NCBI GenBank assembly: GCA_902774185.1
Contig: CACYHE010000001.1
Span: 108,332-140,331, forward strand
Direction: 5' to 3'
DNA length: 32,000 nucleotides
Source: an uncultured Bacteroidales bacterium
GTDB lineage: Bacteria; Bacteroidota; Bacteroidia; Bacteroidales; Paludibacteraceae
Shown in pieces: positions 6,380 to 31,000 of this stretch (positions are counted from its first letter, which is position 1; each line of letters begins with the position of its first letter). A program made the translations under genes and the position numbers. The notes beneath the pieces are model-generated. The model was not told the origin of the DNA. It made no database searches and saw only the letters and a program-made list of their open reading frames with translations.

Positions 6380-6409
6380 CTTTCAACTTTCAACTTTAAA
6401 CTTTCAACT
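6380..6409. repeat. Heptamer array ctttcaa x4 (sense ttgaaag), recN leader
   Basis: ctttcaa ctttcaa ctttaaa ctttcaa ct. Positions 6379-6409 are identical (31 nt) to 9024-9054 inside aroE. Confidence 0.95.
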
Positions 6410-8453: not shown

Positions 8454-9170
8454 TCAATTATTCCAAATCTTCCAAGCTTCTTTGGCTTGACCTGTTAACA
8501 TCTCTATTCCGTTCTGCGTTCGGACACCTTGTGCTTTGCCTTTACGCAAGAAGAGGGTCTCTTCGGGGTTGTAGATACAATCGTACAACAAATGTTGTGC
8601 CGAAAGGTGTTCGTAGGGTATCGGCGGACAAGTATCGATATCCGGATACATGCCTAATGGCGTACAGTTGACGATGACCGTATGGCGGTTCATGATGTCG
8701 GAATCCAAATCGTCGTACGTCAAGGTTCCTTCTGCAGCATGCCTACTGACAAGGGTAGGGACGATCCCTAACAGCCGTAACGCATAGCACACGGCTTTGG
8801 CGGCACCGCCAGTACCTAACACCAAGGCCTGTCGGTCTTGTTTGTGCAACAATGGTCTTATCGATTCCATGAATCCGATATAGTCGGTGTTGTAACCGGT
8901 TCGTTGATACACCACGTTTACGGCGCCTATCGCTTGTGCCGTCGGGTCGATACGATTCAGGTACGGGATAATCGCCTGTTTATACGGATACGTCACATTA
9001 AACCCGTCCAAATCGGACAAAAGTCTTTCAACTTTCAACTTTAAACTTTCAACTCTCGTTGGGTACAACGAGTACTCCGCCTCTATGCCTTCTGTCGCAA
9101 ATTTCTGATTGAAGAACTGCGCAGAGAACGAGTGTTCCAATGGAAATCCTATGATACCGAAGTGACGCAT
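8454..9170 (-). CDS. aroE: Shikimate dehydrogenase
   Basis: MRHFGIIGFPLEHSFS, GFNVTYPYK, GAVN and the NADP-binding GTGGAAKAV motif. It contains a translated heptamer array at 9025-9054 (RVESLKLKVER). Confidence 0.9.
   Translation of the reverse strand: MRHFGIIGFPLEHSFSAQFFNQKFATEGIEAEYSLYPTRVESLKLKVERLLSDLDGFNVTYPYKQAIIPYLNRIDPTAQAIGAVNVVYQRTGYNTDYIGFMESIRPLLHKQDRQALVLGTGGAAKAVCYALRLLGIVPTLVSRHAAEGTLTYDDLDSDIMNRHTVIVNCTPLGMYPDIDTCPPIPYEHLSAQHLLYDCIYNPEETLFLRKGKAQGVRTQNGIEMLTGQAKEAWKIWNN
9025..9054. repeat. Heptamer array ctttcaa x4, translated inside aroE
   Basis: ctttcaa ctttcaa ctttaaa ctttcaa ct. It is read in frame as RVESLKLKVER. Confidence 0.95.
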
Positions 9171-11719: not shown

Positions 11720-11749
11720 CTTTCAACTTTAAACTTTCAACTTTCAACT
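11720..11749. repeat. Heptamer array ctttcaa x4 (sense ttgaaag), ettA leader and folA 3' end
   Basis: ctttcaa ctttaaa ctttcaa ctttcaa ct. The flanks catttc...ctg are identical to those of array 6380-6409. Confidence 0.95.
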
Positions 11750-14203: not shown

Positions 14204-16294
14204 CTAGTATAGTTTATACGTTGTTTTGAGTACCTTGAACTCGGTACGACGGTTGATCTGGTTGCAGATCTCTTGTTTGTCAATCGGCAGACTGTTGATG
14301 AACGTCTCGTCCAGCACTTGCTCAACCGGTATCCACGGATATTGCTTGTTAAGCGCCTTGTCTGCCACCACCGGTTTGGTTTTACCGTATCCTACCGGCG
14401 TCAGACGTTCTTTCTCAATACCGTGTTGGATGAGGTAGTCACAGCAACTCTGTGCACGTTTCTGACTTAACTCGTTGTTGAACTCGTCCGTACCCTTCAA
14501 GTCCGTATGGGCACTGAGCTCAATGGTGATATTGGGGTTGTCGTTAAGCAGTTTAACCAATTTCTCCATCTCTTTCTCCGAGGCCTGCGTCAACTCCCAT
14601 CGACCGAACTCATAGAACACATTCTCCATCGTGACGGGTCGGCTAATCGGTTGCAGCACAAAGTCCATCGTGTAGGTCTTGCTGTCCTTCAAACCGAAGG
14701 TGTTCCATTGCTCTTTGGCGTTCAGATAACCTCTGGCGGTGACTAACATGACGTACTTGACGTCTTGTTGCAGTTTGATCTTGTACTTACCGTCCCGACG
14801 GGCGTTGAGTTTACTGTTCGTGCCGTCGGATCCCACAATACGCAACATGGCGTCGGCGATAGGATTGCCCAAACCGTCGTTCACCGTCCCTTGTGCTATG
14901 AACTCCATCTCAGGCAAGGTAAACTGGTAGATCTTATCCATCCCTTTCTTATCGCCTCGGTTGGAGGAGAAGAAACCGTTCTGACTGTTTCCGGCAAAAG
15001 TGATACCGAAGTCATCGCCGGCTCCGTTGAAGGGCGCCCCCATGTTAAACAGGATCCACACGACGCTGTCTTTGTAGGTCGTGTCACGTGTGGCTTTGAA
15101 GATATCCAGACCTCCGTAACCCGGATGACCGTTCGAGGCAAAATAGAGCGTACCGTCAGCGTGTACATAAGGGAACATCTCATCGGCACTCGTGTTGATT
15201 CCGGCTTCCAAAGGATGCGCGTTCACCCATTGGTTTTCTGCCAACTCCGCCATCCAGATATCTTTTCCTCCTTGACCGCCCGGTGCATCACTGGCGAAAT
15301 AGAGCGTGTCACCCATCGGACTGAGCGCAGGATGACCCACCGTGATCGTACTGTCGGTAAATAGTTTGACTTCCTGTGCTTCGCCCCATTCACCGCTTGC
15401 CCGTTCACTACAGTAGATCTTAGCACCCAGATCCTGACCGTTGATAGGCTTGGAGTAAGTGAAATACATCATCCTGCCGTCCTTGGTAAAGCAGCACGCA
15501 CCCATCTCTGCGTTCGCTCCGCCTTTACCACTGGTCGAGTCATTCTGTTGTTCCTCTTCCTCTTGATCCCCGTACAAACCCTCTGCCGGTTCTATCTCTT
15601 CCCATTCTCCGGCTGCGTTCTTGCGTGTCTGGTAGAGTTGGAAAAGCTGTTGACCCGTCACGTTACTGGCGCGTTTGAGTTTTTTCGTTCCCTTCTCTTT
15701 GGACTCCTGCCGGTTTGATGTGAACATGAGTGCGTCGTTTTGATCACCGATGAACATCGGGGCGAAGTTACTGCTGCGTTTCTTGTTAAACATCTTCGCT
15801 TCGCTTACCTTGTACCGGCTGGTCTCTTTCTTCCACTCGTCCATCTTCGTGCAAGCGTACTTGCCGGCCTGCGCTACATAGTCATCGGGATGGGCTTCCA
15901 GATAGGAATCGTAGTGCTTGATGGCATCTTTGTATTTACCTTGGTTCTGCAGCACTTGTGCGGCATGCAGGTAAATCGTCGAGTCCTGTAACTGGTACTT
16001 ACAACGCAATGCACTCTGGTAAGCATTAGCAGCACGGGGATTATTGATATAGCGGTAACACTCCGCCTGACGGTAAGCGACGTAGCCCTTCAAGTCCCGT
16101 TGCTTCTGCGTACTGAGCCGACTATAACAGGACTTGTAGATCTCTCCGGCCGCATAGTACTCCCCGATGGCGTATTTCTTATCCGCCCGCTTGATACGTT
16201 GCTGGATAGAGCACCCGCTCAGAAGAATTGAAAATTGAAAAATGAAAATTGAAAGGAGAAAACCTTTCACCTTTGACCTATCACTTTTCAACAT
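14204..16294 (-). CDS. OmpA-family lipoprotein with TPR, TolB-like beta-propeller, CarboxypepD_reg-like and OmpA C-terminal domains
   Basis: Lipobox LLSGC, TPR-like AECYRYINNPRAANAYQSAL, WD40-like repeats (YFASD/YFASN), and a C-terminal OmpA motif (LSAHTDLKGTDEFNNELSQKRAQS). I chose the ATG at 16292-16294 (MLKSDRSKVKGFLL...). The track start at 16315 is a GTG inside a repeat. Confidence 0.88.
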   Translation of the reverse strand: MLKSDRSKVKGFLLSIFIFQFSILLSGCSIQQRIKRADKKYAIGEYYAAGEIYKSCYSRLSTQKQRDLKGYVAYRQAECYRYINNPRAANAYQSALRCKYQLQDSTIYLHAAQVLQNQGKYKDAIKHYDSYLEAHPDDYVAQAGKYACTKMDEWKKETSRYKVSEAKMFNKKRSSNFAPMFIGDQNDALMFTSNRQESKEKGTKKLKRASNVTGQQLFQLYQTRKNAAGEWEEIEPAEGLYGDQEEEEQQNDSTSGKGGANAEMGACCFTKDGRMMYFTYSKPINGQDLGAKIYCSERASGEWGEAQEVKLFTDSTITVGHPALSPMGDTLYFASDAPGGQGGKDIWMAELAENQWVNAHPLEAGINTSADEMFPYVHADGTLYFASNGHPGYGGLDIFKATRDTTYKDSVVWILFNMGAPFNGAGDDFGITFAGNSQNGFFSSNRGDKKGMDKIYQFTLPEMEFIAQGTVNDGLGNPIADAMLRIVGSDGTNSKLNARRDGKYKIKLQQDVKYVMLVTARGYLNAKEQWNTFGLKDSKTYTMDFVLQPISRPVTMENVFYEFGRWELTQASEKEMEKLVKLLNDNPNITIELSAHTDLKGTDEFNNELSQKRAQSCCDYLIQHGIEKERLTPVGYGKTKPVVADKALNKQYPWIPVEQVLDETFINSLPIDKQEICNQINRRTEFKVLKTTYKLY
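16228..16255. repeat. Heptamer array ttgaaaa x4 (sense ttttcaa)
   Basis: ttgaaaa ttgaaaa atgaaaa ttgaaag. It encodes LSIFIFQFS of the OmpA-family lipoprotein signal peptide. Confidence 0.95.
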
Positions 16295-16328
16295 ATATTT
16301 CCTTTCACTTTTCACCTTTCACCTTTCA
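16263..16328. repeat. Heptamer array cctttca, 4 + 4 units split by a 10-nt spacer (sense tgaaagg)
   Basis: cctttca cctttga cctatca cttttca / acatatattt / cctttca cttttca cctttca cctttca. The spacer carries the ATG at 16292-16294. The last unit carries the DUF1015 TGA stop (16326-16328). Confidence 0.95.
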
Positions 16329-17615
16329 ATTTAGCTCGTGGATTACCAATCCCGAGCGTAACTTGGGTTCAAACCATGTGGTCTTGGGCGGCATGATATT
16401 GCCGCTATCGGCGATGTCGATGATCTGCTGCATGGTAACGGGGTAGAGCGCCAAAGCCACTTTCATCTCTCCGCTATCCACTCTCTGCTTCAACTCGCCC
16501 AGACCACGGATACCGCCTACGAAGTCGATTCGTTTGTCCGTACGCAGATCTTTGATGCCAAGGATCTTATCCAGAATAAGATTACTCGATATCGTAACAT
16601 CCAGCACACCTATCGGGTCCGCATCATTATAGCGTCCCTCCTTAGCGGTCAACGAGTACCACTTCCCGCCCAGATACAGGCTGAAGTTGTGCAGCGCTTT
16701 GGGTTTTACATCATTAAGCACGGAGGATTGCCTGTGGCCATCCGAATCGAGCAAGTCACCATTATAACATTCAACAATGAAGTCCTTATTAAGGGCTTCG
16801 AGGAACTCCTCCTCGCTAAGTCCGTTCAGGTCTTTTACCACACGGTTATAATCGATGATATTGAGTTGATTATCCGGGAAACAAACGGCTAAGAAATACT
16901 CGTACTCAGGAACCTTAATTTTTAATTTTTCATTTTTAATTTTTAATTCCTGTCCTACGCCAGCCGCCGCAGCTGAACGATGGTGTCCGTCAGCGATGTA
17001 CATCGCCGGAATCTCCGCAAAGATCTCGGTGATACGATCAATCGTCTTTTTGTCCTCAATGATCCAGAACGTGTGACGGAATCCTTCCGGAGCGGCTACG
17101 AAGTCATACTCCGGTGTGCCCTTGGTTACTTCTGCAACGATAGCATCAAGGTCGTCCCGGTGAGGGTAGGCGAAGAATACCGGTTCCATGTTCGCGTTCA
17201 GCGTACGTACATGTTTCATGCGGTCTTCCTCTTTGTCCTTACGCGTCAACTCATGTTTCTTAATGCGTCCCTCCAGATAGTCATCTACCCAAGCGCCGAC
17301 AACCAAACCATACTGCGTCTTGCCAAAACCCGTTTGCGCGTAAACGTAGTATTTCTCCTCTTGGTCTTGTTCCAACCAACCTTTGACACGAAAACGCTTG
17401 TATTGTGACAACGCCTCCTGATACACACGAGGGTCATGCTCATCGGTACCGGGTTCAAAATTGATCTCCGGCTTGATGATATGATACAGACTCATCTCGT
17501 TGCCTTCCGCTTCCTGACGTGCCTCCTCGGAGTTCAATACGTCATACGGCCGACTACTCACTTTGGTCACCAACTCTTTCGGTGGCCGTATTCCCTTAAA
17601 TGGTTTTATCTTCAT
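16326..17615 (-). CDS. DUF1015 family protein
   Basis: MKIKPFKGIRP..., the ADGHHR motif, and 429 aa. It contains a translated heptamer array at 16915-16949 (ELKIKNEKLKIK). Confidence 0.88.
   Translation of the reverse strand: MKIKPFKGIRPPKELVTKVSSRPYDVLNSEEARQEAEGNEMSLYHIIKPEINFEPGTDEHDPRVYQEALSQYKRFRVKGWLEQDQEEKYYVYAQTGFGKTQYGLVVGAWVDDYLEGRIKKHELTRKDKEEDRMKHVRTLNANMEPVFFAYPHRDDLDAIVAEVTKGTPEYDFVAAPEGFRHTFWIIEDKKTIDRITEIFAEIPAMYIADGHHRSAAAAGVGQELKIKNEKLKIKVPEYEYFLAVCFPDNQLNIIDYNRVVKDLNGLSEEEFLEALNKDFIVECYNGDLLDSDGHRQSSVLNDVKPKALHNFSLYLGGKWYSLTAKEGRYNDADPIGVLDVTISSNLILDKILGIKDLRTDKRIDFVGGIRGLGELKQRVDSGEMKVALALYPVTMQQIIDIADSGNIMPPKTTWFEPKLRSGLVIHELN
16915..16949. repeat. Heptamer array ttaattt x5, translated inside the DUF1015 gene
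   Basis: ttaattt ttaattt ttcattt ttaattt ttaattc. The sense strand reads ELKIKNEKLKIK. Confidence 0.95.
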
Positions 17616-18954: not shown

Positions 18955-19110
18955 CACGCGCGTACTTTTTTATGATTTTTATTACTTTTTCCTTCTTCCA
19001 AATTCGCATAGTTCAAAATTATTTGTTCCTTAATATCCTATGTATCGAACTCAACCATCGATACCTGTGTAATCCATGTAAAATAAAGGCTTGCCACGTA
19101 TGCGTATTGG

Positions 19111-19150
19111 GTGATTATAGGGAGATTATTGCGTGATTATTGCGTGATTC
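19111..19150. repeat. 11-bp period tandem repeat gtgattattgc x3.6
   Basis: gtgattatagg gagattattgc gtgattattgc gtgattc. It lies in the spacer between the FGE stop and the esterase promoter. Confidence 0.85.
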
Positions 19151-25383: not shown

Positions 25384-25805
25384 TGGGTCGCATTCTCGCA
25401 ATAGATTACGGTCGTAAACGCACAGGATTAGCCGTTACGGATATTCTCCGCATAACGGCTAATCCGTTGCTTACGATTGAGACGAAGGATTTGATAAACT
25501 GGTTGACGGGCTACTTCGCTAAAGAAGCTGTTGACGAAGTGGTTATCGGTCATCCGACCCAGATGAACGGTACAGAATCGGAGTCGATGAATTATATCCG
25601 ACCGTTCATGGGCGTATTTAAAAAGACGTTTCCAGACAAACCTATAACTATGTATGACGAGCGCTTCACGTCGGTATTGGCGCACAGGGCAATGATTGAC
25701 GGGGGAATGAAGAAAAAAGACCGACAGGACAAAGCGGTAGTGGATAAGATCGCCGCATGTATCATCCTCGAGGGTTACCTCGAGAAGTTGAAAGTTGAGA
25801 GTTGA
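25383..25805 (+). CDS. ruvX: Holliday junction resolvase-like protein RuvX (YqgF)
   Basis: MGRILAIDYGRKRTGLAV and DERFTS motifs. TAATG overlap with the upstream gene. Its TGA stop at 25803-25805 lies inside array 25788-25815. Confidence 0.9.
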   Translation: MGRILAIDYGRKRTGLAVTDILRITANPLLTIETKDLINWLTGYFAKEAVDEVVIGHPTQMNGTESESMNYIRPFMGVFKKTFPDKPITMYDERFTSVLAHRAMIDGGMKKKDRQDKAVVDKIAACIILEGYLEKLKVES

Positions 25806-25815
25806 AAGTTGAAAG
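25788..25815. repeat. Heptamer array ttgaaag x4 on the plus (sense) strand
   Basis: ttgaaag ttgagag ttgaaag ttgaaag. It encodes the ruvX C-terminus KLKVES plus its TGA stop. This is the same unit family as 6380, 9025 and 11720, again in sense orientation. Confidence 0.95.
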
Positions 25816-25852
25816 AAGTTATATAGTATATATAGTAGAAAGTTATTAGAGT

Positions 25853-26962: not shown

Positions 26963-27531
26963 TGTTTGTAATCGGCAATAACACATTAGTCAGTCTGGAC
27001 GTACTTGAAAAAGAGTTCTGCTGTGACCTGGATACCTGTCGGGGGTGTTGCTGTATCGAAGGCGATGCCGGTTGTCCTATTACCGATGAGGAAGTAGTAC
27101 AGATAAAGCAGATCTTACCGCAACTGTTGCCGCAGATGACCAAAGAAGCACGGGAAGTAGTTGAACAACAGGGACTTAGTTATCTGGACCCTTCCGGAGA
27201 ACAAGTGCTCTCTATCGTGAACGGAAAGGATTGTGTTTTTGCCCGTATCGATCATCAAGGCTGGTGTTACTGTTTGATAGAGAAAATGGGATTTTCCAAA
27301 CCGATATCGTGTCATCTGTATCCGATACGGCTGACTAAAGTAGGAGACTATACTGGCGTGGAGTACCATCGTTGGGATATCTGTCATTGTGCCCGGCTGA
27401 AAGGAAAAAAACTGCATTTGCCGCTCTATCAGTTCTTGAAAGAACCACTAATACGTCGTTTTGGGCAGGCATGGTATGATGAATTGGAACTAACGGCTAA
27501 TGAATGGAAAAAACAATGCGCGCAGAGATAA
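26962..27531 (+). CDS. DUF3109 family protein (Cys-rich)
   Basis: FCCDLDTCRGCCCIEGDAGCP is characteristic of DUF3109. TAATG overlap with mntP. Confidence 0.85.
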   Translation: MFVIGNNTLVSLDVLEKEFCCDLDTCRGCCCIEGDAGCPITDEEVVQIKQILPQLLPQMTKEAREVVEQQGLSYLDPSGEQVLSIVNGKDCVFARIDHQGWCYCLIEKMGFSKPISCHLYPIRLTKVGDYTGVEYHRWDICHCARLKGKKLHLPLYQFLKEPLIRRFGQAWYDELELTANEWKKQCAQR

Positions 27532-28748
27532 TTACGATAGGAGATGAACTGCTGATCGGTCAGGTGGTGGACACCAACTCCGCTTGGATGGCCCAGCGAT
27601 TGAATGAGCAAGGTATTGAACTATACCGGATTACGTCCGTTCATGACGATAAGGCACAGATCATAGATGCCTTAGATGCTGCATTTAACGAAGTGGATAT
27701 CGTGTTGACGACCGGCGGTTTGGGTCCGACCAAAGATGATATCACCAAGCAGGTGTTATGCGATTATTTCCATACGCACCTTATAGAAGATACGCGTGTG
27801 CGTACGCATATAGAGGAACTCTATCGTGATCGTCCGGACGTGTTGAACCGACTGACCGCTACGCAATGGCAAGTGCCTGCTTGTGCCGAGATTCTGGAGA
27901 ATCGGGTAGGGTCCGCTCCGCTGATGGTTTTTAAGAAGGATGACAAGCTGCTTATCACTATGCCCGGTGTGCCTTACGAGATGAAGATCGCGATGGAGGA
28001 ACAAATTCTGCCGTTTATAGAGTCGAAAGTCGAAAGTCAAAAGTCGAAAGCCATTATCCATAAGACGCTGCAGGTGACGGGTATCGCAGAGAGTTCGTTG
28101 GCGATCTTACTGGAGGACTTTGAGAACCGAATGCCTTCGTCCTTGCACTTGGCGTATTTACCCAAAGACGGGGTGATCCGTTTGCGTTTGTCGAGTTACG
28201 GCGATATGACAGAAGAAGAGGTGACACGTTGGTTTGATGAGTTGAAACAGTTGACGGCTGATTATCTGATCGCCGATACCGATGAACCGCTTGAAGTGAT
28301 TGTAGGCAATGTGTTAAAAGCCAAAGGCATGACCATCTCCACTGCCGAGAGTTGTACAGGCGGTAAACTGGCTTCATTACTCAATAAGCATGCCGGTTCG
28401 TCTGCTTTCTATTGGGGTTCGGTCATCAGTTATGACAACTCCGTCAAGGTGCAGGTCTTAGGCGTTCCGGCAGAACTGATAGAAAAGTACGGCGTAGTAA
28501 GCGAAGAGGTGGTACGTGTGATGGCACAGTCTGTTCGCAAACTAACCAATACTACTTGTAGTATTGCTACATCCGGTATCGCAGGACCATCCGGTGGTTC
28601 GAAAACCAAGCCGGTTGGTACCGTTTGGATGGCTTGGGACACGCCTAAAGGGACGTTTGCGGAGTGTTTTCATTTAGGCAAACTGCGTGAACAGGTAACC
28701 GACAGAGCATGCCAGAAAGCATTGATAGGATTATTAAAACATATTTAA
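27516..28748 (+). CDS. cinA: CinA family protein (competence/damage-inducible; NMN deamidase-type C-terminal domain)
   Basis: MRAEIITIGDELLIGQVVDTNS (MoCF_biosynth domain) and a C-terminal ESCTGG CinA domain. An alternative ATG at 27504 would add MEKT. It contains a translated array at 28021-28048 (ESKVESQKSK). Confidence 0.9.
   Translation: MRAEIITIGDELLIGQVVDTNSAWMAQRLNEQGIELYRITSVHDDKAQIIDALDAAFNEVDIVLTTGGLGPTKDDITKQVLCDYFHTHLIEDTRVRTHIEELYRDRPDVLNRLTATQWQVPACAEILENRVGSAPLMVFKKDDKLLITMPGVPYEMKIAMEEQILPFIESKVESQKSKAIIHKTLQVTGIAESSLAILLEDFENRMPSSLHLAYLPKDGVIRLRLSSYGDMTEEEVTRWFDELKQLTADYLIADTDEPLEVIVGNVLKAKGMTISTAESCTGGKLASLLNKHAGSSAFYWGSVISYDNSVKVQVLGVPAELIEKYGVVSEEVVRVMAQSVRKLTNTTCSIATSGIAGPSGGSKTKPVGTVWMAWDTPKGTFAECFHLGKLREQVTDRACQKALIGLLKHI
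28021..28048. repeat. Heptamer array agtcgaa x4, translated inside cinA
   Basis: agtcgaa agtcgaa agtcaaa agtcgaa. It reads ESKVESQKSK. The unit differs by one base from gttgaaa (TGA becomes CGA). Confidence 0.95.
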
Positions 28749-30284: not shown

Positions 30285-30925
30285 CGCACCTTACGAATAA
30301 TCGTAAGACCGTCACGAATAGGGAGGATGACTTGCTCAAAGCGGTCATCCTCTTTGATTTGATCATTGAAAGCACGAAGTCCCAGGGTCTGTTTGTCCTT
30401 ATCGTACGCCGGATCAATAATATGACCGTCCCAAAGGGTGTTGTCCGCCAAGATGAACCCGCCTATAGGCACCAGGGGATAGACCAATTCAAGATAGGCG
30501 CAGTACTCCCGTTTGTCGGCATCGATGAAGACAAGATCGAATAATGGGTGAACGGTTGAATGGATGAAGGTTGAAAGGATATCCTTTGCATCGCCGATGA
30601 TCAATTCGATACGGTCGGATAGGGGAGACCGGGACAGATTACGTCGTATCGTCTCTTCCAACTCATCGTTATGCTCGATGGTCACTACTTTGCCTCCTTC
30701 TGCCAAGCCTTCCGCCAGACAGAGCGCACTGTAACCGGTGAACGTACCGAGTTCCAGAATGCGCTGCGGACGAATCATATGACTGATCATACTTAATACC
30801 CGTCCTTGCACGTGACCACTAAGCATATGTGGATTGAGTATATGTACATAGGTATCACGTGTGATGGCTTCCAATGCGGCATTTTCGGGTGTCGAATGAG
30901 ACGAAATATATTCCTCAAGTGTCAT
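30281..30925 (-). CDS. Class I SAM-dependent O-methyltransferase (caffeoyl-CoA OMT family)
   Basis: ILELGTFTGYSALCLAEGL SAM motif and FIDADK. Start chosen at MTLEEYI (ATG 30923-30925). Convergent 4-nt overlap with the metallophosphoesterase gene. Confidence 0.85.
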   Translation of the reverse strand: MTLEEYISSHSTPENAALEAITRDTYVHILNPHMLSGHVQGRVLSMISHMIRPQRILELGTFTGYSALCLAEGLAEGGKVVTIEHNDELEETIRRNLSRSPLSDRIELIIGDAKDILSTFIHSTVHPLFDLVFIDADKREYCAYLELVYPLVPIGGFILADNTLWDGHIIDPAYDKDKQTLGLRAFNDQIKEDDRFEQVILPIRDGLTIIRKVR

Positions 30926-30943
30926 AATGTTACAAAATTTGTG

Positions 30944-30975
30944 CAAAATTAGTGAAAAATTTCTTATTTTACAAA
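30944..30975 (-). promoter_or_regulatory. Probable promoter of the O-methyltransferase gene
   Basis: The minus strand reads TTTG (30972-30975), N20, TAATTTTG (30944-30951), 18 nt upstream of the ATG at 30925. Confidence 0.5.
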
Positions 30976-31000
30976 TAAAAACGATTATTTTTCACAAAAT

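Follow-up and report, generated by a model that had tools for sequence, protein, structure and literature searches.

An in-frame heptanucleotide array in a hypervariable inter-domain linker of cinA from an uncultured rumen Paludibacteraceae bacterium

Arrays of tandem heptanucleotides have been known in prokaryotes since 1990, as the short tandemly repeated repetitive (STRR) sequences, and have usually been treated as intergenic curiosities; Mazel et al. are said to have reported STRR sequences in cyanobacteria in that year. Here we analyse an array of AGTCGAA units that lies inside a gene, cinA, of an uncultured rumen bacterium of the Paludibacteraceae. The DNA analysed was a 32-kb window (the whole stretch to which all positions refer; GC 48.6%) and about 5 kb more of the source contig. 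This array is a heptanucleotide repeat of about 30 bp sitting in frame in a hypervariable linker of CinA, and it is one of a population of such arrays that extends throughout the lineage.

According to Mrazek et al. (2007; cited in PMC4692102), the long simple repeats of prokaryotes contain an excess of heptamers. Their arrays usually hold about four units and lie within 50 bp of the ends of open reading frames (ORFs), sometimes over stop codons or in ORFs, and a copying bias by slippage or template switching has been proposed to account for them (PMC4692102, PMC4679880). STRR heptanucleotide families occur in the heterocystous cyanobacteria Calothrix, Nostoc and Anabaena, as cited in PMC4692102. 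The arrays studied here resemble these families in being made of tandem 7-nt units, with several families per genome and many short dispersed arrays that are mostly intergenic. They differ in that they belong to Bacteroidota and are A-rich; many of them are also translated in frame within protein loops, and close relatives have different arrays at the same site. We know of no description of in-frame loop arrays with replacement between close relatives for STRR sequences.

Three other systems were compared with the locus. TAACTGA repeats have been described in marine Beggiatoaceae, in cyanobacteria and in five Bacteroidetes including Paludibacter propionicigenes (MacGregor 2015, PMC4679880). 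They share with the present arrays the presence of two to six heptamer units just 5' of start codons, with stops in all three forward frames, and rare intragenic copies in variable surface loops, where they encode a heptad-like peptide (LSVINYQLS). However, one unit dominates there, whereas dozens are found here, none of them TAACTGA at the cinA site; the cinA array, whose unit is AGTCGAA and which lies 505 nt inside the coding sequence, is stop-free in all sense frames and is not part of that system. The GGGAATC and GGGGA(T/C)T heptamers of Xanthomonas and Nostoc (Rehm et al.; PMC4692102) are likewise arranged in about four units, at no more than 50 bp from ORF ends and sometimes over a stop or in ORFs; their position is kept in related species while length and sequence vary, and polymerase slippage has been proposed. 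These repeats are G-rich and quadruplex-forming, whereas ours are A-rich with no predicted structure, and hot-spot turnover in coding loops has not been reported for them. Finally, leuA of M. tuberculosis contains an in-frame variable number tandem repeat of 57 bp (PMC2704214), another case of a tandem repeat tolerated in an enzyme and encoding an extra, probably surface, peptide. In leuA the unit length is divisible by 3 and the copy number is free, whereas with a unit of 7 nt only the whole array keeps the cinA frame, and it is the sequence, not the copy number, that varies.

As a population, the arrays behave like the heptanucleotide simple sequence repeats, or STRR-like sequences, of prokaryotes: tandem 7-nt units occur far above chance, in many dispersed families and with a preference for gene ends. 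The cinA array is an intragenic exception to this preference, and an intragenic minority of heptamer arrays has been described (PMC4679880, PMC4692102). The lineage differs from the known heptamer systems in the multiplicity of its units, in the frequency of in-frame arrays and in the turnover at fixed hot spots of housekeeping proteins. We found no description of these three properties, and a tree-of-life survey of short tandem repeats from 2025 held nothing specific on heptamers.

The cinA array consists of the units agtcgaa, agtcgaa, agtcaaa and agtcgaa (28021-28048) and continues with AG to 28050. Tandem Repeats Finder (TRF), run on the window, delimited the stretch 28021-28050 with a period of 7, 4.3 copies and 91% matches. 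The two-unit pattern GTCGAAAGTCGAAA, with up to two mismatches, was expected 0.38 times from dinucleotide shuffles, and the observed count was reached in none of 100 shuffles. Read in frame, the codons TCG AAA GTC GAA AGT CAA AAG TCG AAA GCC specify SKVESQKSKA. All three sense frames are free of stops; a perfect GTTGAAA array has a TGA in all three. A first-pass annotation of the sequence had described the units, the in-frame peptide ESKVESQKSK and the lack of sense-frame stops, correctly throughout. Its statement that the array is translated within cinA as a linker peptide agrees with the public gene call and with the domain content of the ORF, whose product carries, in CinA order, the Pfam domains MoCF_biosynth (residues 8-173), CinA_KH (186-247) and CinA (261-412), with E-values of 4e-36, 3e-8 and 7e-51, all over the gathering scores. 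A further ATG is open upstream, at 27504, defining an ORF of 414 aa (27504..28748), and a look-up of the product of this ORF gave no match. Chance low complexity was rejected as the origin of the array, being ruled out by the DNA periodicity and the shuffles. An alternative code in which TGA is a sense codon was also rejected: gene lengths under translation table 11 are normal, and ruvX and folA stop at TGA within arrays.

Solved homologues of CinA are 6mr3 and 4ct8. An AlphaFold model based on a 33-sequence alignment, with a mean predicted local distance difference test score (pLDDT) of 80, placed residues 172-182 partly in the last stretch of helix 157-175 and partly in a loop, with strand 184-192 coming next; within the loop, residues 177-181 had a pLDDT below 50. 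The structure 6mr3 is five residues shorter precisely at the linker. Because of this loop placement, and because 6mr3 is shorter exactly there, the array is predicted to encode a surface connector that joins the COG1058/MoCF-type domain at the N-terminus to the KH-type domain. The linker peptide is hydrophilic and of low complexity, and forms a final helix turn and a poorly ordered loop. The effect on CinA itself is probably small, the connector being variable in sequence and about 7-18 residues long.

Related loci were fetched through CinA (81 loci, designated by L numbers, 1.44 Mb in total), and the cinA linkers of 57 orthologues and 4 extra relatives (61) were compared. The flanks of the linker were almost invariant among CinA homologues of 60-96% identity (...EEQILPY[IL] on one side and I[IL]H[KR]TLQVTG on the other), and 7-18 variable residues lay between them. 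At least ten different array units occupied this site: AGTCGAA, AATTGAA/AATTAAA, ATCAGCA, GCATTCA, AATTCAA, AATCAAA, AATCACC, AATTACG, GGACAAA and AGGTTAA. Some species had instead a short, repeat-free linker of the IGRATAS type, and Paludibacter-like outgroups an ordinary linker, LQKQFKTPA, which is conserved. An alignment across genera, proposed with the first description of the array, thus showed no conservation at the protein level: the site is hypervariable in the rumen clade and different in Paludibacter. Where units containing a stop codon were present, they were changed at the point where the stop would be in frame, as an intact gene requires (for example AAT TAA to AAT GAA, in arrays encoding LKIKNEKLK).

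The AGTCGAA type of array, encoding SKVES[RQ]KSK, was found in L048, L004, L072, L039, L202, L203, L204 and L205, eight relatives with CinA identities of 72-96%, and several more database proteins carry it. A subset of species has inherited or shares this type. The frame was kept in all nine sequences, the window included; eight were of equal length and L039 had one more codon. L205 is the window's closest relative, with 92% nucleotide identity across 7.3 kb, and its cinA array is identical to that of the window.

Comparison of close relatives showed that the linker can be exchanged independently of the gene around it. The cinA genes of L001/L003 and L006 were 97-100% identical in most 60-bp windows but had unrelated linker arrays within a patch of 70 nt, and the substitutions that remained fell into clusters, forming mosaic tracts of the kind that recombination is expected to leave. 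In the opposite case, L001 and L005 were only 73% identical in cinA overall, yet 43 of 45 linker bases were common to both, and in L002 and L016 all 13 linker codons were the same, against 47% elsewhere.

Turnover was also observed at the ruvX-def junction. An ATGA overlap of stop and start is found there in the outgroups and in the closest relative; across 57 species, the junction was otherwise filled by at least eight types of array unit. L205 (1316-1350) has no array at this place, but the ancestral ATGA overlap and a divergent flank of 25 nt. The units at this junction often contain the local stop-codon sequence (for example ...cgttaa followed by ACCGTTAAATCGTTAA), and because they are built on the local stop codon, their sequences argue for arrays that have grown locally. 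In the window, the junction (25785-25852) comprises a GTTGAAA array and a 47-nt spacer, and the final six codons and the TGA of ruvX consist of array sequence.

The cinA array belongs to a large population, and its grouping as a class with the other 7-base arrays of the genome was borne out. TRF reported 17 period-7 rows in the window at a score of at least 30, against 0.64 in second-order Markov simulations, and 13 arrays at a score of at least 45, against none. The unit families include GTTGAAA (four arrays), GGTGAAA (three), AATTGAA (two) and ATTTA[CT]G (three), together with CACAGAA, TTAATTT, AATTAAG and others; GTCGAAA is represented by the single array in cinA. Among strict tandem repeats in the related loci, period 7 accounted for 80 arrays and period 11 for 42, while any other period gave at most 10. 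Of the 80 period-7 arrays, 54 lay at or between gene ends, in DNA that consists of ORFs to about 90%. Their density per Mb was 406 in the window, 55 in the inner clade and 16 in Paludibacter-like genomes. A typical array measured about 30 bp, also in intergenic positions. Arrays also occur in tolerant protein loops and linkers, when the unit is stop-free in the frame used or when the in-frame stop has been mutated. In aroE, a single change has converted the in-frame TGA into TTA. In the SufS gene of L208, the unit switches from AATTAAA to AATTCAA at the very point where a TAA would fall in frame, and the units that follow, three AATTCAA, all keep the C.

In the reading that we favour and consider probable, slipped-strand or template-switch copying of 7-nt units would generate the arrays, stop codons and the tolerance of the protein would act as a filter on them, and homologous recombination would then shuffle the arrays between lineages as linker alleles. 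GTCGAAA would be a family of units that is independent and widespread, and would not stem from conversion of the GTTGAAA arrays of this genome. The size of about four units had been considered as the outcome of an in-frame expansion from one unit by three (a gain of 21 nt); this was rejected, as filled and empty SufS sites differ by 27 nt and intergenic arrays are also about 30 bp long.

Several observations weigh against this reading. Synonymous sites are conserved in the array with sharp edges: all ten array codons are identical between the window and L202, compared with 9 of 20 for the 24 codons that flank the array and 50% for the remainder of the gene (p=0.001). The array codons were identical also between L004 and L072 (10 of 10) and between L203 and L204 (9 of 9). 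In our judgement, codon usage alone would be very unlikely to yield ten identical codons. This conservation needs an extra process, which could be conversion within or between arrays, a function at the nucleotide level or copying specific to arrays. Moreover, the window cinA and a Paludibacteraceae SufS gene (L153) share 32 bases (AGAGTCGAAAGTCGAAAGTCAAAAGTCGAAAGC) without a difference and read them in the same frame. An AATTAAA array with an ATGAAAA fix is present in three genes: cinA (L001/L005), SufS (L207) and the DUF1015 gene of the window. One identical 30-mer occurs twice in the window (6380 and 9025). The same odd arrays in different genes and the repeated 30-mer are not explained by purely local slippage. 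Finally, a neighbour-joining tree of cinA was star-like in the inner clade, and is too poorly resolved for a count of the independent gains at the linker. Recombination tracts were tried as the cause of the synonymous conservation and rejected: they fit L001 versus L006 but not the window versus L202, in which codons on both sides of the array differ.

Several of these observations are grounds for a different explanation, which we regard as possible though doubtful: that an array of about 30 bp is a cassette copied from an array of the same family elsewhere in a genome, by template switching where short homology exists or by ectopic gene conversion from array to array. The SufS site is empty, with GEA directly followed by F, in 51 of 81 homologues with a parsable site, the empty allele reading GGAGAAGC; at 92-97% identity to L153, homologues have different arrays or no array at all. 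The CinA and SufS hot spots have in common the peptides HNSQCT, SRVKSQESR and KVESRKTKD. Copying is also consistent with the sharp-edged conservation within the cinA array, and with a GTCGAAA array of 43% GC found in contigs of 60-73% GC. As for the 30-mer, the TTA unit (instead of TGA) is needed only in aroE and is nevertheless kept at 6380-6409, where the open frame matches neither neighbouring gene; this suggests, from the two sequences, that the arrays are copies of one another. On the other hand, no two GTCGAAA copies have been demonstrated in one genome, and the units of the ruvX-def junction are clearly derived from local stop-codon sequence. Similar arrays could have converged through selection for hydrophilic, stop-free peptides combined with a preference for NNNGAAA units. 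Thirty bases are near the lower length limit for RecA-dependent exchange, and no enzyme or element is associated with the arrays.

If copying did take place, heptamer arrays of about 30 bp might, tentatively, be the smallest known dispersed cassettes: a restricted number of families, each marked by odd variant units of its own, would be copied between unrelated sites in the rumen Paludibacteraceae, and perhaps over a wider range, through template switching at microhomologies of the GA(A/G) type or through ectopic conversion. Such cassettes would seed and overwrite gene junctions and tolerant loops (cinA, sufS, DUF1015, aroE, the O-methyltransferase and the Rv0495c-like gene), and would cause rapid, localised turnover of loops and linkers in housekeeping proteins that are otherwise 92-99% identical. 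Two side observations concern these sites. The sufS genes of L153, L208 and L209, from rumen Paludibacteraceae and 89-95% identical in DNA, carry a GTCGAAA array, an AATTAAA-to-AATTCAA array or none (GGAGAAGC). The 30-mer shared by 6380-6409 and 9025-9054 reads CTTTCAACTTTCAACTTTAAACTTTCAACT.

An origin of the GTCGAAA array by conversion was the other possibility put forward in the first-pass annotation, beside a distinct GTCGAAA family: a GTTGAAA array would have been converted unit by unit, T to C and hence TGA to CGA, by concerted evolution, so that cinA could be read through. We hold this to be improbable. The two units differ at a single position, and GTTGAAA is the dominant family of the window. 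Arrays of one locus also resemble each other more than those of different loci (31% versus 12% of pairs within one mismatch); the corresponding counts for cinA-linker arrays against the others of their own locus were 8 of 34, versus 120 of 1010. Variant units have spread within arrays elsewhere, as in the three AATTCAA units of L208 and the two AGTAGAA units of L203. However, all four cinA units have C and not T, and no GTTGAAA or mixed array was found at the cinA site in the 57 orthologues and 4 extra relatives. The array is common to species that have no GTTGAAA arrays in their loci. Just one unit in every three would have its TGA in frame, and converting all four units was not needed, because one substitution removes the in-frame TGA, as in aroE. 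Decay of CpG is an established mutational bias, and it favours the reverse direction, from GTCGAAA to GTTGAAA.

A search of metagenome contigs from the Joint Genome Institute (JGI) for three GTCGAAA units listed at least 120 stretches with GC from 0.33 to 0.73, none of them cinA among the matches listed. Many of the listed arrays were in frame, in either orientation, in homologues of housekeeping genes (SufS, a GlmM-type mutase, RibD, RlmN, the PolA 5' nuclease, MurG and a RimO-like protein). Seven of the 120 mixed GTCGAAA and GTTGAAA, which is in line with conversion between the two. In viral contigs, triple units matched 45 times for GTCGAAA, 48 for GCAGAAA and 24 for GTTGAAA, against 0 and 8 for two permuted controls, and NNNGAAA-type heptamers seem to be favoured as tandem arrays well beyond this lineage. 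In the related loci, all five GTCGAAA arrays were in cinA and orthologous, and 16 GTTGAAA arrays were found, mostly at gene ends. Because GTCGAAA is abundant in metagenome and viral contigs, including those of unrelated taxa and in other genes, without GTTGAAA at the cinA site, it appears to be a common array unit in its own right, and conversion from GTTGAAA is both unnecessary and unsupported. Of the two origins first proposed, the data thus favour the distinct family, to which the identical 32 bases in SufS also point.

Whether arrays of this unit are tied to translation was to be judged from their distribution between genes and intergenic DNA. The outcome was intermediate: among the matches listed, about 55-64% of GTCGAAA arrays lay in long ORFs, which is less than the coding density of about 90% but well above the share for stop-containing units. 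The parallel drawn between the cinA peptide and an aroE, ettA and ruvX peptide held only in part, for aroE, where the array is internal and translated; the ettA array lies just 5' of the ATG and the ruvX stop is inside its array. As a side observation, a RibD homologue from a metagenome (L114) carries two array-encoded patches. One, VESRKSKVES, lies between the deaminase and reductase parts; the other, QSAVSNQQSD, is in a hairpin of the deaminase and is of a peptide type also present in cinA linkers.

As first noticed, the unit that departs from the others in the cinA array is that in which the CGA would be read in frame, and it gives CAA at 28038-28040. No special meaning of this position could be upheld. 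CAA was found at this codon in the window, L205, L202 and L204, CGA in L048, L004, L072 and L039, and AGA in L203. Because orthologues with the array hold CGA or AGA, the CAA is, on the aligned sequences, probably a plain Arg-to-Gln change in one sub-lineage and not a case of stop avoidance. In the 120 listed metagenomic arrays, the commonest variant units were GTCAAAA (52, a number inflated by the search pattern, in which the third unit could have either A or G there) and then GTTGAAA (14). A transition at the CpG of GTCGAAA produces just these two units, and GTCAAAA was found in every frame and unit position. Of the two CpG transitions open to an in-frame CGA, the lone CAA would represent the only viable one, the other yielding TGA. 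A variant unit that falls in frame needs no special mechanism, since an in-frame CGA decays viably to CAA only.

It is also unlikely that the array is a functional binding site in DNA or mRNA for a protein recognising 7-nt direct repeats, which cinA would merely tolerate. Such a site would account for synonymous positions conserved inside the array but not in adjacent codons, and for intergenic arrays that end 2 nt before start codons with stops in all frames. Binders of the S1, Csp or CsrA type have been proposed for TAACTGA repeats (PMC4679880). However, other species have unrelated units or no repeat at the cinA site and the closest relative is without the ruvX-def array, which argues against a conserved sequence-specific role. 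Rfam covariance models gave no match at the gathering score over the whole window, and no candidate binder was identified.

The least credible proposal, a phase-variable contingency locus in which gain or loss of a unit would shift the frame and switch cinA, draws on the facts that 7 is not a multiple of 3 and that non-triplet simple-sequence repeats underlie classical phase variation (PMC4692102), but all nine sequences with the array type (72-100% CinA identity) keep the frame, with the L205 array identical, no frameshifted allele was seen among the linkers compared, and four units are short for efficient slippage.

The lineage provides a natural experiment, in that cinA, sufS and the ruvX-def junction are empty or differently filled in genomes otherwise 92-97% identical. 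Because the same sites are empty and filled in near-identical genomes, one can read directly from them how the insertion junctions look, in which direction a site has changed and what part recombination has played. The data show, too, that the sequence of some inter-domain linkers and surface loops is written by a repeat process at the DNA level and not by selection on the protein. This is of relevance to annotation, to alignment-based phylogeny of metagenome-assembled genomes of Paludibacteraceae and to the origin of low-complexity linkers. The features of the window are collected in Table 1.

Table 1. Positions of the cinA array and of other repeat features in the 32-kb window.
Feature	Position	Strand	Remarks
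Heptanucleotide tandem array (AGTCGAA)x4.3	28021..28050	+	translated in frame, (E)SKVESQKSK(A)
CAA (Gln) codon of variant unit AGTCAAA	28038..28040	+	CGA or AGA (Arg) in orthologues with the array
Hypervariable inter-domain linker site	28017..28055	+	residues I171-I183 of the 414-aa ORF
cinA (COG1058/MoCF-type, KH-type and CinA/PncC domains)	27516..28748	+	start according to the public assembly
GTTGAAA array giving the last codons and TGA stop of ruvX	25785..25815	+	TRF; absent in the closest relative
GTTGAAA array with one GTTTAAA unit, in frame in aroE (RVESLKLKVER)	9025..9054	-	
30-mer identical to 9025-9054, intergenic, ending 2 nt before the recN-like ATG	6380..6409	-	
GTTGAAA array holding the folA (dihydrofolate reductase, DHFR) stop, ending 2 nt before the ettA-like ATG	11720..11749	-	
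AATTAAA array with one ATGAAAA unit, in frame as ELKIKNEKLKIK in the DUF1015 gene	16915..16948	-	
Short-repeat patch coding a loop of the O-methyltransferase (PF01596)	30543..30580	-	TRF; differs in the closest relative

Some further observations concern the other arrays of the window. The array at 11720-11749 makes up the entire spacer between folA and the ettA-like gene, with the TGA of folA in its first unit. The sequence GTTGAAAGAAATG is identical 5' of the recN-like and ettA-like starts, and arrays of this type may be candidate intercistronic stop/restart or leader elements in an organism without Shine-Dalgarno use. Longer compound CCTTTCA/ACCTTTC arrays of about nine units (GGTGAAA on the other strand) are present at 72-134 and 16262-16328. 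Each of them adjoins an AATTGAA/TTGAAAA array of the opposite strand, an inverted arrangement found at two gene ends.

The patch in the O-methyltransferase gene is a 7-8-nt repeat, DILSTFIHSTVHPL. In L205, another repeat of 15 nt occurs at the same loop (CKLEIVNLHDS), and the protein is otherwise almost identical. In the divergent intergenic region between the O-methyltransferase gene and an AsnC-type regulator gene, the window (30933-30993) and L205 differ by a 41-bp indel flanked by 11-nt repeats of the CAAAATTTGTG type. Period-11 arrays, such as the 4.1 copies of TATTGGGTGAT at 19105-19149 of the window, form a second over-represented class. They are placed unlike the 7-nt arrays: 35 of 42 are intergenic, none was found in Paludibacter-like loci, and they may be located in promoter regions.

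A second hot spot lies 5' of cinA, in an Rv0495c-like gene (PF11307) whose loop AYNAGKIDF is conserved. This loop is replaced by an array-encoded or otherwise variable peptide in L010 (9666-9692), L027 (3451-3484), L011, L050, L037 and L034, and it is deleted in the Rv0495c-like protein of the window.

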